Below, one piece after another: positions 92-4,705 of a stretch of DNA of 4,795 bases. The translations under genes and the position numbers were made by a program. The notes under the pieces were generated by a model that saw nothing but the letters and a program-made list of their open reading frames with translations, made no database searches and had not been told where the DNA came from. Source of the DNA: a virus (Duplodnaviria > Heunggongvirae > Uroviricota > Caudoviricetes); IMG/VR virus record IMGVR_UViG_2563366961_000005; one strand, written 5' to 3'. Within the stretch, counting starts at the first letter, position 1, and each line of letters starts with the position of its first letter.

Positions 92-105
92 CACGAAGTA
101 AAAGA

Positions 106-555
106 ATGGTTGTACAGAGCAGAACGATAATAAACACGCATCACATTTTAGGTAACACCATGACAAACATCGAACGATTAGAACGCTGTGCTGACATTAT
201 GCGCCGCAGATGGATTTATGACCCTGAAGCGGGTTTATTATTCAGCCGGGAGACAAAAGACGTGATAAAAGGCGGCATGACTCGCAAGGGCCATTTAAAC
301 GTAAGCATTCAGGAAGGTGATTTTAAAGCGACGCTTAGTTATCAAAAAGCCTGCTATGTATACACATACGGCGCTTATGATGAGACGTTATATGAAGTTC
401 ACCACGTGAATATGAACAAACAAGACAACCGCATCAAGAATATTCGCCTGATGCCAAAGGAACAGCACCGCCGGATCCATAAAAACGTCCGCAAACTCAT
501 TCGGCTGGGCCACACTCAATGGCTGCAACCACAAGTAATAGAGGCATCACTATGA
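106..555 (+). CDS. HNH endonuclease, phage type. True start may be ATG 160 (MTNIERL...), giving 132 aa
   Basis: HNH motif EVHHVNMNKQDNRIKNIRLMPKEQHRRIH (His-His, Asn, Asn, His...His) preceded by the RW...DPE.G.L segment typical of phage HNH_3-like proteins. The frame is open back to position 34 inside IS1, so the start is uncertain. Confidence 0.72.
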   Translation: MVVQSRTIINTHHILGNTMTNIERLERCADIMRRRWIYDPEAGLLFSRETKDVIKGGMTRKGHLNVSIQEGDFKATLSYQKACYVYTYGAYDETLYEVHHVNMNKQDNRIKNIRLMPKEQHRRIHKNVRKLIRLGHTQWLQPQVIEASL

Positions 556-622
556 CGAGAAACGTAGTTGATGATTTTTCAGTTGTAAAAGTAAGCACAA
601 ATATTTAAGAGAGGAAATTACC

Positions 623-934
623 ATGTACTACCCAAATAACACTTACCTTAACCTGGTTGGCAATAACTATAAACCATCCTCCGAAGTAATGGAAAAAAAA
701 GCATTCGACAAAGCAATGAGCGCCGAGGCAGATCGCATCGTTGACATGCTGCCCGACTTACTCAGTGGAATTATTGACGAATCCGCTGCCGCGTTATTCA
801 GCCAGATGCCGGAATGTATGGCCGGTGAAGATCCTGTGACTCATGACGTATTAAATGAAACCAGTATTCGCCGGAGGCTTGCCGGAAAGGTGGCAAATAA
901 GATCGGCCACGGCATAAGTTTTCTTCAGAAATAA
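623..934 (+). CDS. hypothetical protein, 103 aa, no recognisable motif
   Basis: ORF with strong RBS GAGAGGAAA 5-13 nt upstream of the ATG; same strand and tight spacing as neighbours. Confidence 0.6.
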   Translation: MYYPNNTYLNLVGNNYKPSSEVMEKKAFDKAMSAEADRIVDMLPDLLSGIIDESAAALFSQMPECMAGEDPVTHDVLNETSIRRRLAGKVANKIGHGISFLQK

Positions 935-952
935 GATGAATGGAGATAAGAA

Positions 953-1399
953 ATGACACGCAAAGAATATATTCACCAACTGGCACAAGAAATTATTAGC
1001 ATGAACCAGCCACTGATTGACCGTATTGTCACGGCTGAAGTCGATAAAATTAAATTTCAATTAGCATCGCTCGCGCCGAACATGGCGGCAATACGAAGCG
1101 AAATGTTGGCTGTAATGGGGTCAAACAGCGCTCTCGGCGTGTATTTAGCAAAGACTGATGAGTTAGCTGGCTTTAAATCCGCCGCCGCTACAGCGACAAA
1201 TAAAGCGCCTGATACACGTCAATATTTTGAAGGGGAATTAGACGATTTCACACGTCAATACTTCGATGGGGAATTGGACGATTTCACGCGCCAGTATTTC
1301 GACGGTGATGATCTGGTCAATAAAAGTATTCGTGAATATTTCGATGGCAGCGACGAGTTTAATCGCCGCTTAGACGACTATTTCCACATGGGAGAATAA
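953..1399 (+). CDS. hypothetical repeat-containing protein, 148 aa; acidic C-terminal region with five YF motifs
   Basis: RBS GGAGATAAG 7 nt upstream. C-terminal 60 aa contain QYFEG, QYFDG, QYFDG, EYFDG and DYFHMG, encoded partly by an in-frame 36-bp tandem repeat. Confidence 0.62.
   Translation: MTRKEYIHQLAQEIISMNQPLIDRIVTAEVDKIKFQLASLAPNMAAIRSEMLAVMGSNSALGVYLAKTDELAGFKSAAATATNKAPDTRQYFEGELDDFTRQYFDGELDDFTRQYFDGDDLVNKSIREYFDGSDEFNRRLDDYFHMGE
1214..1321. repeat. In-frame 36-bp tandem repeat: two near-identical units (1214-1249, 1250-1285) plus a degenerate third
   Basis: Unit 1 acacgtcaatattttgaaggggaattagacgatttc and unit 2 acacgtcaatacttcgatggggaattggacgatttc differ at 4 of 36 positions: three are synonymous third-position changes and one gives Glu->Asp. 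Confidence 0.85.
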
Positions 1400-1403
1400 A
1401 CAC

Positions 1404-2402: not shown

Positions 2403-2413
2403 AGGGGGGAAAC

Positions 2414-2830
2414 ATGAGCACAGAAATTACAGAAAACAATGATTTAGATAATTTTGAGAGCGCTACGCAGGAAAAAAGGCGCGTAGGCAGACCGTCAAAA
2501 TATAGTAACAAGATGGCGACGCAGATCGCGCTACTGGTTGGTGAGGGGTACAGCCTGAGAAAAATAGCCAGCATGGAGGGATACCCATCACTAGCAACGA
2601 TCCTACGCTGGCAAATCGAGTTTCCCGACTTCAGGGAAGCAATCGGCTGGATGAAGTGGCTGCATAGTCACGACCTGGGCCAACAAGCAATTGAGGCGAT
2701 CGAGAGCGTAAACCTTAATGATGAAGATGCCGCGATGCAGCTTAAGAAAGCACAAGCGAAAGCACGGGCGCTGATAGACACCGCGAAGTTATTAGACCTG
2801 AAATCAAATCCATTTGGGGGCAATGAGTAA
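2414..2830 (+). CDS. phage terminase small subunit-like DNA-binding protein, 138 aa
   Basis: N-terminal segment RRVGRPSKYSNKMATQIALLVGEGYSLRKIASMEGYPSLATILRWQIEFPDFREAI matches the GRPxKY...GxSLRxIA...PSxxTxxRW...EFR pattern I associate with phage small terminase HTH domains. RBS GAGGGGGGAAAC upstream. Confidence 0.68.
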   Translation: MSTEITENNDLDNFESATQEKRRVGRPSKYSNKMATQIALLVGEGYSLRKIASMEGYPSLATILRWQIEFPDFREAIGWMKWLHSHDLGQQAIEAIESVNLNDEDAAMQLKKAQAKARALIDTAKLLDLKSNPFGGNE

Positions 2831-3234
2831 TGAGTTTATTCACAAGCAAACAAGGCCAACGCCTTTTTACCAATCGAGAGCAGAACGGCGGCGCTGACCG
2901 CTACGAAGCATTGAGAGTTAAGCCTTTCCGTGACTGGTCACACGCAGATCTCCAGTGTTACAACGCCATTTGGATTGAGTCGATGAACGAGCTTATCGAA
3001 GAGTATTACATCGAGCCAAAAGAGCCGATAATGGGCCAAATCCTGGCTATCTATGGAAATGCATTGGTTGAACTGAATGGCAGCCATAAAAGCGTTTTGG
3101 CGCTCAATTCGCTGGCGTATCGTGACGATCTTCCGGTGGCTGAACAAGGGGTGCATTTGTGGGAGATCGCCCAGGTGGAACGGGAACTAAATCAAGGGGG
3201 AAGCGATGCCGATGAAACACAAAGCTGTCATTGA
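2830..3234 (+). CDS. hypothetical protein, 134 aa; translationally coupled to the upstream gene
   Basis: Start ATG overlaps the upstream stop (TAATG at 2828-2832). No recognisable motif. Confidence 0.55.
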   Translation: MSLFTSKQGQRLFTNREQNGGADRYEALRVKPFRDWSHADLQCYNAIWIESMNELIEEYYIEPKEPIMGQILAIYGNALVELNGSHKSVLALNSLAYRDDLPVAEQGVHLWEIAQVERELNQGGSDADETQSCH

Positions 3235-3652
3235 GAAAATCAAGCGACAACTACGCGAAGAAATCGAAGATATTAACCGCGATGCAGCGACGGCAGTCTA
3301 TGCAATCGGGATGGAAGTAATTGCCAATGCAGCAGCAAAAACGCCACGCGATACAGGGACGCTAATCGGTGGCTATTACGATCCGCAGGTAAGCCAGGAT
3401 GATGAAGGGGCGCATTGCACGGTAGGAAACACGGTCCGCTATGCCTTTTGGGTGCATGAAATGCCAGGGACACTGAAAGGACAACCGCGCGAGCATTTCG
3501 GAAAAACCCGTGAAGGTATCGCCTTTGGTGGCGGCACTGGTCGCGGTGAATATTGGGAACCAGACGGCGAACCTGAATTTCTTAAAAAGGCGCTTGGGGA
3601 AGAGTATCACAGCGAGTACATGGATATAGCGAAACGATATTTAAAACGATGA
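3206..3652 (+). CDS. HK97 gp10-family phage morphogenesis protein (head-tail joining / tail completion type)
   Basis: Motifs KTPRDTGTL and VGNTVRYAFWVHEMPG resemble the PxDTGxL ... VGTNVxYAxxVEFG signature of the HK97 gp10 family. RBS AGGGGGAA upstream; overlaps the previous ORF by 29 nt. Confidence 0.55.
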   Translation: MPMKHKAVIEKIKRQLREEIEDINRDAATAVYAIGMEVIANAAAKTPRDTGTLIGGYYDPQVSQDDEGAHCTVGNTVRYAFWVHEMPGTLKGQPREHFGKTREGIAFGGGTGRGEYWEPDGEPEFLKKALGEEYHSEYMDIAKRYLKR

Positions 3653-3661
3653 GGTGAAATC

Positions 3662-4705
3662 ATGAGTGAACAAGTAGGAAGCCTCCAGATAGATATTGAC
3701 CTGAAGACAAAAAATTTACTGGTGAGCCAGCGCCAGGCTGAGGCCGCATTAGACGACATTGGCAATAAGATTGGCGGCGCAGAGCGACAAGCAGCAAAAC
3801 TTAACACGCAGCTAACAAAAACATCGCGGGCTATTAGCGGCAATCTGCGTGCCGGATTCCAGCAGGCTGGATACCAGATCCAGGACTTCGTGGTGCAGGT
3901 CCAGTCAGGACAAAGCGCACTGATAGCGTTGTCACAGCAAGGCAGTCAGTTATTGAGTGCCTTCGGTGGCTGGGGCATTGCTCTTGGTGCGGCACTTACG
4001 GTTGGTGTATCGCTGTTTAAAGCCCTGACAGGTGAAACCGAGGAGACAACAGACAAGACCGAAGTATTTGAAAAGGCTTGCAGTAATTTACGCCAGGTAA
4101 TGGCCCTGAACGAGCAAGGCGTAAACGTCCTGTCAAACGAATACGCCAACCTCGCGAAACAGTCAGCCGAGGCCGCTGCGATGGTCGAACGCCATTTAAC
4201 ACTGAAGCTACGCGAAGCCAAATCAGCGATGAGTGACTATATCACCAACACACTGGACGCACAGAACGCGACTGCGGGTTTTGGGGTGATTGGATCTGAC
4301 AGTTTACTCGACATGATGCAGGCGATGCGTGCGCTGGGCGTTGAAACGTATGATTACGCCGACGCAATGGACCAGTTGAACGGCATGGGCCTACGTGGTG
4401 CGCAGATCCATAAAGAGCTAAACCGCGAACTTGATGATATGGCAGATAAAACTGGCGTATCAAAAGAAGCGCTCTTTGATATGTGCCAGGAATTAATGGC
4501 GGTCGCTAAAGCGCCGACAGCGGACAGCATTTCAGCACTATCAAACCGCATTGCCAGCATGAACCCTACGACAGCGGAAGGTGTTGGCCTGTTTAATGAA
4601 CTACAGCAGGCATTGATTAAAGCCGCTATTGAGCTTCAACAGTTCGGGGATATTAGCGAAGATACCGCCAATAAACTTGATGTATTAAATCACGCGGCGG
4701 GGTAA
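3662..4705 (+). CDS. tail tape-measure-like protein, N-terminal 346 aa only; truncated by IS1, which supplies the final codon and stop
   Basis: Segment GYQIQDFVVQVQSGQSALIALSQQGSQLLSAFGGWGIALGAALTVG resembles the conserved N-terminal motif of tape-measure proteins such as lambda gpH (from memory). The ORF crosses the IS1 junction at 4700/4701: last codon GGG spans 4700-4702 and stop TAA at 4703-4705 lies inside the IS1 terminus GGTAATG. RBS GAGGTGA upstream. Confidence 0.6.
   Translation: MSEQVGSLQIDIDLKTKNLLVSQRQAEAALDDIGNKIGGAERQAAKLNTQLTKTSRAISGNLRAGFQQAGYQIQDFVVQVQSGQSALIALSQQGSQLLSAFGGWGIALGAALTVGVSLFKALTGETEETTDKTEVFEKACSNLRQVMALNEQGVNVLSNEYANLAKQSAEAAAMVERHLTLKLREAKSAMSDYITNTLDAQNATAGFGVIGSDSLLDMMQAMRALGVETYDYADAMDQLNGMGLRGAQIHKELNRELDDMADKTGVSKEALFDMCQELMAVAKAPTADSISALSNRIASMNPTTAEGVGLFNELQQALIKAAIELQQFGDISEDTANKLDVLNHAAG

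Follow-up and report, generated by a model that had tools for sequence, protein, structure and literature searches.

Under the SatelliteFinder definition, the core of a phage-inducible chromosomal island (PICI) consists of an integrase, a regulator of the AlpA/MerR/Stl kind, a primase-replicase, a capsid-morphogenesis gene and a small-terminase gene (terS), and tail genes are forbidden both in PICIs and in capsid-forming PICIs (cfPICIs) (PMC10085698). Tail genes were thought to be absent from satellites until 2025-26, the only precedents being the Vibrio PICI-like elements (PLEs) and a mycobacterial preprint. The PLEs of Vibrio cholerae, satellites of phage ICP1, encode their own tape-measure protein (TMP), chaperone and hub, and chimeric tails are assembled, with PLE11 blocking the helper TMP via Rta (PMC12987554). 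The mycobacterial EPIP satellites are reported to carry terS, head-tail joining proteins and a TMP, TMPs being otherwise not reported in satellites (preprint; PMC12822802). The Escherichia coli K-12 element CPZ-55 has been classed as a prophage, cryptic or “grounded”, that 8% of strains carry (PMC6379469), and no link of CPZ-55 or the yff genes to satellites was found in the literature searched. Here we describe a 4,795-nucleotide stretch of viral DNA (IMG/VR record IMGVR_UViG_2563366961_000005; “the window” below means this whole stretch), which is an IS1-bounded, inactivated fragment of an integrative element of the CPZ-55 family. A preliminary description had drawn attention to its abridged morphogenesis order, in which a terS-like gene is followed directly by a gene for a 134-aa protein, a gp10-like gene and a tape-measure-like gene, and had left the choice between an old reduced remnant and a compact, possibly satellite-like module. 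Judged from gene content and sequence comparison, the family is probably a PICI-like satellite of siphophages of the mEp021 group.

Without its IS1 ends, the segment was searched against 5,426 complete E. coli genomes and matched 60 of them. Seven genomes were collinear over at least 80% of the segment (94.6 to 97% identity), and positions 92 to 4795 of the window were 99.98% identical to L007 and L008 (relatives are given by their L numbers). The order HNH endonuclease gene, small open reading frames (ORFs), terS-like gene, 134-aa gene, gp10-like gene and TMP gene is thus real. The annotated relatives inspected as intact (L001 to L005, L007 and L012 to L014) are integrase-bearing elements of about 12 kb, each running from a terS-like gene through one or more adaptor genes to a TMP gene. 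Their layout begins with a tyrosine integrase and genes that vary between members (for a YffL-like protein or a YafO toxin), then a short AlpA-like helix-turn-helix (HTH) protein and, in some members, the HNH protein; it continues with proteins of 103, 148, 112 and 91 aa, the terS-like protein and one or two variable-slot genes, and closes with a TMP of 726 to 732 aa followed by small ORFs, HTH proteins and Ant-like proteins. No terL, portal, capsid, tail-tube or lysis gene was found in any relative or in the window. The abridged order is the native design of the CPZ-55 family and not a deletion scar; it was inherited by the window, itself an inactivated fragment, and is not new there.

It is accordingly very improbable that an ordinary prophage lost its terL, portal, capsid and tail-tube genes to IS1 activity or fresh deletions in this strain. 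Two IS1 copies do flank the segment, and an IS1-linked deletion is clear in the lineage of L006 and L007, but the internal junctions are identical in IS1-free relatives, no IS1 or scar lies within 92 to 4700, and none of the relatives has the missing genes. As a cause of the internal order, recent rearrangement is refuted by those identical junctions; it explains the two ends only. The preliminary description had argued against fresh deletion scars from two tidy junctions, a TAATG stop/start overlap at 2828-2832 and a 29-nt ORF overlap at 3206-3234; both are there in the sequence, and its argument holds. Intact prophages with the full gene set at these junctions, which would have made this a case of simple decay, were not found; the nearest true phages (mEp013 and MagusPhagus) do have the full set, but their homologous proteins are only 30 to 43% identical.

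The window holds ten ORFs, all co-directional on the plus strand, and its features are as follows.

1 to 91, minus strand: terminal 91 nt of IS1, with the end GGTAATGACTCC facing inward; perfect inverted repeat with 4701-4791.
92 to 130, plus strand: final 39 nt of a gene for an AlpA/MerR-like 58-aa regulator, cut by the left IS1.
160 to 555 (ORF opens at 106), plus strand: HNH endonuclease, accessory; matches PF13392 (HNH_3) and HNH PHROGs.
623 to 934, plus strand: family-specific conserved small protein of 103 aa, in every full element.
953 to 1399, plus strand: family-specific conserved protein of 148 aa with C-terminal YF(D/E)G repeats.
1404 to 1742, plus strand: family-specific conserved protein of 112 aa, in every full element at 62 to 100% identity.
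1763 to 1930, plus strand: 55-aa ORF, confined to the window, L001 and L007.
2055 to 2330, plus strand: family-specific conserved protein of 91 aa, 68 to 99% identical across full elements.
2343 to 2402, plus strand: four TTAGCG repeats directly upstream of the terS-like start; candidate TerS site or operator.
2414 to 2830, plus strand: small-terminase-like protein of the Sf6 gp1 type, 138 aa, homologue of K-12 YffO; matches PF20901, phrog_1482 and 3HEF/4DYC.
2830 to 3234, plus strand: orphan 134-aa protein in a variable “adaptor” slot between the terS-like and TMP genes.
3206 to 3652, plus strand: tail-completion protein of the HK97 gp10/Neck1 type, 148 aa, accessory; matches phrog_5, with PF04883 near its cut-off.
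3662 to 4705, plus strand: tail TMP gene truncated by IS1; the first 346 codons are native, the IS1 junction supplying codon 347 and the stop.
4701 to 4795, plus strand: 95-nt end of another IS1 copy, in the opposite orientation to that at 1 to 91; the junction is common to L006, L007 and L008, where eutS comes after IS1.

Assignments of the packaging and tail genes, which the preliminary description had made from the letters and translations, stood up in profile searches. The terS-like protein exceeded the cut-off of the Pfam family Sf6_terminase (PF20901; 32.6 bits against 27), matched phrog_1482 (8e-12) and aligned over nearly the whole chain (residues 22-133) with the solved Sf6 gp1 structures 3HEF and 4DYC (E = 5e-8); it is 54% identical to YffO of K-12. 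The gp10-like protein matched phrog_5, “tail completion or Neck1” (4e-8), and its identity to the proteins that fill the Neck1 slot in mEp515, mEp013 and MagusPhagus was 43 to 48%, with 89 to 98% of its length aligned; its score against Pfam HK97-gp10_like (PF04883) was slightly below the cut-off (21.1 against 21.4 bits), and no PDB or NCBIfam match was found. For the tape-measure-like gene the assignment likewise holds (phrog_1538, 3e-47, profile positions 1-349 of 811), although the preliminary description did not state that IS1 cuts the ORF off after 346 of about 729 codons. Residues 1-346 are 100% identical to those of L001 and L002, and the full-length TMP of L001 (729 aa) matches phrog_1538 from end to end (4e-96; protein 1-728, profile 1-808 of 811).

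Two of the genes, HNH and gp10-like, are accessory within the family and not core because they are missing from several members. The gp10-like gene is found only in the window, L001, L002, L004 and L007 among the relatives inspected. The HNH gene, whose product scored 34.6 bits against HNH_3 (PF13392; cut-off 24.8), is missing in L004, L013 and L014; being of this homing type and absent from these three, it was downgraded as a candidate for the essential packaging partner of HK97-type phages. Its ORF opens at ATG 106, but in annotated relatives the start is always the ATG corresponding to 160 (131 aa), and the 54 nt at 106-159 are probably untranslated. Downstream, a programmed -1 frameshift of the G/GT style joining the 134-aa and gp10-like genes was rejected: the gp10-like gene lies in the +1 frame and starts at an ATG of its own behind a GGGGGA Shine-Dalgarno sequence, and 3181-3234 contain no heptamer of the form X XXY YYZ.

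The adaptor slot between the terS-like and TMP genes keeps its place across members, but its content varies. It holds the 134-aa and gp10-like genes in the window, L001, L002, L004 and L007, a 134-aa homologue alone in L003, an unrelated 133-aa protein in L013, an unrelated 128-aa protein in L005, and, in L012, L014 and K-12 (yffP position), a gene of 196 to 197 aa in which no similarity to the 134-aa protein could be detected. L013 retains the stop/start coupling of 1 nt behind the terS-like gene though the downstream gene is unrelated. The 134-aa protein, whose role the preliminary description had left open, is to judge from database searches an orphan: it fell into four clusters among 5.8e9 proteins (at least 69% identical, organism names all E. 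coli), found only itself among 1.84e9 representatives, and gave no phage tblastn match at E ≤ 1. Its AlphaFold2 model is all-helical at low confidence (pLDDT 47.5).

Neither the 134-aa protein nor any of the five small ORFs had a match in Pfam, PHROGs, NCBIfam or PADLOC. PADLOC returned only a generic HNH match on the window and no known defence protein among the core ORFs. The small proteins are under constraint, their nonsynonymous to synonymous ratios (dN/dS) being 0.14-0.21 (103 aa), 0.12-0.30 (148 aa), 0.19-0.31 (112 aa), 0.10-0.35 (91 aa) and 0.08-0.26 (134 aa). At the C terminus of the 148-aa protein (1214-1399) five YF(D/E)G-type motifs stand in acidic repeats (FTRQYFDGELDD three times), partly encoded by a 36-nt tandem repeat at 1214-1285; two more xxYF motifs lie at the C terminus of the 112-aa protein (1660-1742), and the pattern is kept in both proteins across the family. 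A strong 9-bp GC-rich hairpin with a T-tract on the minus strand (1941-1961) follows the 55-aa ORF and looks like a minus-strand terminator, though all genes are on the plus strand. A conjugative E. coli plasmid of 168 kb (NZ_CP049202.1, 57940-58264) carries the 91-aa region (1915-2236) at 82.8% identity, this 322-nt match being the sole plasmid match of the segment at the DNA level. Rfam and tRNA scans of the window found nothing, and a scan for sigma-70 promoters found fewer than shuffling would lead one to expect.

Both IS1 copies face inward with the same end, GGTAATGACTCC, as a perfect 92-nt inverted repeat (arms 1-92 and 4700-4791), and positions 92 and 4700, the limits given in the preliminary description without mention of IS1, coincide with the inner edges of the two inverted ends. 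E. coli genomes match this end sequence more than 100,000 times. Only the ends of IS1, without a transposase gene, are in the window; in L006 and L007 a gene with InsA, HTH_Tnp_IS1 and DDE_Tnp_IS1 domains (PF03811, PF12759 and PF03400) comes after the repeat at the right junction. The window is probably a complete short-read contig broken in IS1, and the inverted pair could either have arisen when IS1 transposed replicatively within the molecule and inverted the segment, or belong to a composite transposon of 6 kb. On the left, window position 92 aligns to L007 6431, inside the 58-aa gene (L007 6293-6469); on the right, the stop codon TAA of the TMP ORF (4703-4705) is supplied by IS1. The order in L007 is eutB, intZ, a 255-aa gene, a 51-aa gene, the 58-aa HTH gene, HNH and onward to the TMP gene (residues 1-346), IS1 and eutS, and an IS1-associated deletion took the 3′ half of tmp, the remaining element and eutA through eutP in the L006/L007 lineage. 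There eutS comes directly after IS1 (11055-12126 in both L006 and L007), and ethanolamine use should be lost in strains with the right-hand junction of the window. In the assembly collection, 168 index blocks contain this truncated TMP protein in identical form. Without integrase, replication region, regulator and the C-terminal half of the TMP, the window copy is an inactivated, immobile remnant: it cannot act as a mobile element because IS1 removed the side with integrase, replication and regulator genes as well as the docking half of the TMP. The choice posed by the preliminary description is therefore answered differently at two levels, a compact module being favored over decay for the family, and this copy being a remnant made by IS1.

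Three integration sites are used by the family. At eutB/eutA, with intZ, are L001, L002, L003, L005, L012 and L014, and also, on the eutB side, the lineage of the window (L007/L008); L004 lies inside ychJ and L013 inside yghO. IntZ is 72 to 96% identical among eut-site members, and the integrase at ychJ is only 31% identical to it. The L013 integrase (5209-6414) is 94% identical to eut-site IntZ (L001 16640-17845) yet sits in yghO, which would mean either relaxed site choice or a secondary site. An 8-bp duplication has been reported at the eut site (PMC6379469), and a weak 16-nt flanking pair in L013 (5161/17473) was the only attachment (att) repeat that we found. All ORFs gave pairwise dN/dS values of 0.06 to 0.38 against diverged relatives, with dS values that reach saturation; the compact layout was therefore in place before the family diversified at length under purifying selection.

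Regulator genes and candidate replication genes are present in relatives. The L004 regulator exceeded the cut-off of AlpA (PF05930; 30.3 against 21), and phrog_66 (excisionase/transcriptional regulator) matched the 58-aa regulator of L007 (5.5e-7) and that of L001. Iteron-like tandem repeats come directly after candidate initiator genes in L001 (18665-18857), L004 (20205-20443) and L007 (5299-5367). In L004 a Rep-O-like initiator (phrog_678, 8e-7; HTH_36) is followed by six iterons; in L001 seven iterons follow a YffL-like gene with a weak match to a replication initiator (phrog_270, 8e-4); and in L007 three 23-nt tandem repeats follow the 255-aa gene, whose product had no Rep match in profile searches. 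The differing positions of the iterons between members suggest exchangeable replication modules. The scan for integrase, replication genes and att sites that the preliminary description had proposed thus yielded, in the relatives, integrases and Rep-like genes with iterons but no clear att repeats at the eut site. At the variable ends lie a YafO-family toxin (L002 17939-18418), a weak match to a Cor-like lipoprotein (L012 8256-9105) and Ant-like anti-repressor domains (L001 26830-27174 and 28300-28860), a cargo that by analogy resembles satellite accessory or defence hotspots.

These data bear on a rival explanation, that the family is a single ancient, heavily deleted mEp-like prophage, grounded and spread by vertical descent and flanking homologous recombination, its genes kept for host benefit or by hitch-hiking and without phage-dependent mobility. 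Such an origin would agree with the cataloguing of CPZ-55 as cryptic or “grounded” in 8% of strains (PMC6379469), with a gene order collinear with the mEp013 late operon, with the visible decay of the K-12 and window copies and with the lack of viral-contig matches. We nevertheless consider it unlikely. Three chromosomal sites and two integrase types go with one and the same compact layout; all ORFs, structural ones among them, are under purifying selection; and integrase, AlpA-like and Rep-plus-iteron modules are intact in relatives. It is because of the dN/dS values, the three sites, the two integrase types and the Rep-plus-iteron modules that a compact satellite-like module is favored over simple decay.

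The TMP supplies two further points against uniform descent and ties the family to a particular phage group. No DNA-level match of the segment was found in 50,697 phage records. At the protein level, the best coliphage matches of the terS-like and gp10-like proteins were in the mEp021 (“mEpimmI”) group (mEp554, mEp013, mEp044, mEp515, mEp021 and MagusPhagus), the terS-like protein being 30 to 38% identical to its homologues there. In mEp013 and MagusPhagus the late operon runs HNH, small ORFs, terS, terL, portal, head genes, Neck1, a 128-aa gene, major tail gene, a chaperone-sized gene and TMP, and the element is a collinear skeleton of it, with homologues 30 to 43% identical; recent derivation from these phages by deletion is ruled out because the homologues are no closer than that. 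The end of the TMP is a different matter. L001 and mEp013 agree in 93.5% of the final 92 TMP residues (88% nucleotide identity over 317 nt ending at the stop codon), whereas the N-terminal 59 to 60 residues are 34 to 40% identical to mEp013 and MagusPhagus and the center cannot be aligned between L001 and mEp013. All TMP types of the elements have a C-terminal 95 aa that is 55 to 94% identical to mEp013/MagusPhagus, while their centers are 9 to 30% identical to each other and their lengths stay at 726 to 732 aa (735 aa in mEp013). For a grounded remnant, such uneven identity to phage (about 10% in the TMP center, 94% at the C terminus) indicates recent targeted exchange and not uniform descent, and the TMP length is kept within six residues despite sequence turnover.

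When the 13-kb morphogenesis module of mEp013 was compared with E. coli genomes by megablast, about 35 genomes had real prophage modules; the remaining matches were to the last 170 to 280 nt of tmp, and the named features among them were all annotated as TMP, among them those in all seven close relatives of the window. The 3′ end of tmp is the only megablast similarity between the mEp013 module and element-bearing genomes. In the mEp013-like prophage modules of the roughly 35 complete genomes, a gene annotated as anti-CBASS Acb1 family lies within the head-gene block.

Conserved termini, fixed length and a free center are what would be expected of a tape measure fitted to the tail of a particular helper. 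On helper infection or induction, a CPZ-55-family element would excise and replicate from its own origin; its TerS homologue would recognize repeats upstream of its own gene, pair with the large terminase of the helper and package element DNA; and its TMP, with the Neck1-type protein in some members, would replace the helper TMP by docking via the matching termini, giving chimeric tails of unchanged length. We place less confidence in this chimeric-tail mechanism than in satellite behavior as such.

Candidate recognition repeats lie upstream of the terS-like start. TTAGCG occurs at 2343, 2354, 2365 and 2397, four copies in 60 nt of which three are phased at 11 nt; the whole window has nine copies against 2.5 expected, and none of 200 shuffles reached nine. 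L013 has a 52% identical allele of the terS-like gene, and the repeat there (AATTCGGGGGTAATT) is unrelated in sequence but again arranged 3+1 and phased at 11 nt; L005 has a mixed repeat set upstream of its terS-like gene. The upstream repeat sequence thus co-varies with the terS allele, and the repeats would fit a binding site of the TerS-like protein, either a packaging signal or an autoregulatory operator.

A second rival explanation takes the same genes for an anti-phage defence island, in which the terS-like, Neck1-like and TMP proteins are decoys that poison packaging and tail assembly of mEp-like phages and the island is not transferred. PICIs, prophages and PLE11 are known to defend by interfering with tail assembly (PMC11364771, PMC12987554), the TMP termini match a specific phage group, and variable accessory genes (YafO toxin, Cor-like lipoprotein, Ant-like proteins) flank the core. 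A decoy, however, needs neither the exact length of a tape measure nor a full-length match to phrog_1538; the PADLOC result among the core ORFs speaks against it; and the integrase, AlpA and Rep/iteron modules point to an element that moves. We therefore regard a purely defensive island as quite improbable, although defence and satellite roles are compatible.

Several results weigh against the family being a satellite. No primase-replicase was detected among the element proteins, which have a Rep/iteron module instead, and the Rep assignment is weak in the eut-site members L001 and L007. Element proteins gave no Pfam or PHROG match to a capsid-morphogenesis gene (the small ORFs without matches could hide an analogue), and no tail chaperone is identifiable in the element, the 134-aa candidate having a low-confidence model only. 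No att repeats were found at the eut site in a scan with an 11-nt seed. None of the seven closest genomes has an mEp013-like prophage, so any helper would be an incoming phage. The gp10 and HNH genes are missing in many members, and the K-12 copy and the window show that the family decays readily. Short-peptide-pattern scans, which are weak evidence, found no family member in IMG/VR viral contigs; by the same kind of scan, alignments of the 148-aa and terS-like proteins picked out a single E. coli CPZ-55 locus and nothing else in a set of 185,579 species representatives.

With these points counted, satellite behavior remains our preferred reading, and a more far-reaching proposal can be put forward tentatively, in the knowledge that it may well fail: CPZ-55-family islands may be an unrecognized class of E. 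coli satellites that parasitize mEp021-group phages by a TMP swap and a TerS that they encode themselves; a conserved orphan small protein or an adaptor-slot protein (such as the 134-aa protein) may be a TMP chaperone or an Rta-like inhibitor; and CPZ-55 of K-12 may be a decayed satellite, not a decayed phage. If this is true, a textbook “cryptic prophage” of K-12 would have to be reinterpreted, and E. coli would offer a tractable model of chimeric tail assembly, since the candidate helper group plates on K-12, together with a route to study how TMP termini set incorporation into tails.

Compared with the fuller 12-kb members, CPZ-55 of K-12 (6.8 kb) can be seen to have lost genes. It shares the eutB/eutA site with the lineage of the window, and its intZ, yffL and yffO are 90, 93 and 54% identical to family genes; yffL, yffO, yffP and yffS have family homologues, relatives carrying genes annotated yffS and a 196-aa gene in the YffP slot. 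It lacks HNH, most of the small ORFs and the whole TMP, and the 91-aa protein is matched only partially, whereas the window lacks the integrase side instead. The phages of the mEp021 group have the same relative order (HNH, terS, Neck1, TMP) and a TMP of near-equal length, but they are 53 to 54 kb and carry terL, portal, capsid, tail-tube, chaperone, tip, lysis and replication genes that the element is without.

Among described satellites, PICIs are close in organization: about 12 kb, with integrase, AlpA-like regulator, iteron replication module and terS-like gene, accessory genes at both ends and specific attachment sites (EcCICFT073 type). The integrase is absent from the window, where IS1 cut it off, and present in all intact relatives; 39 nt of the regulator are left in the window, with AlpA or phrog_66 matches in L004, L007 and L001; and the terS homologue is present in window and family alike. 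The rule against tail genes is broken by the TMP and Neck1-type genes, so the family is PICI-like and not a PICI under the current definition. SatelliteFinder therefore rejects it by design, and satellite censuses may in the same way miss elements that bear tail genes. For cfPICIs, the terL, portal, protease/capsid and head-tail adaptor/connector genes were not found in the window or relatives, and the family does not belong there; with P4-like satellites it has only the integrase and AlpA-like parts in common, no match to psu-delta-sid, alpha primase or epsilon being found in Pfam or PHROGs.

The remaining comparisons are with satellites that carry tail genes. EPIPs likewise combine terS, head-tail joining and TMP genes, but in another phylum, with a serine integrase, reported capsid and scaffold genes and tails that are longer and variable; the likeness is one of described gene content. 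PLEs differ in their helper, a lytic myovirus as against the temperate siphovirus that is the candidate here, and no sequence relationship was seen between PLEs and our elements; no tail-assembly chaperone or hub gene was identified in our elements and no Rta-like inhibitor is known in them, and the tail length predicted here is unchanged, as against shortened in PLEs. What the two would share is the design: a satellite-sized island with its own TMP beside packaging-redirection functions, in which the satellite TMP takes the place of the helper's in tails that the helper builds.

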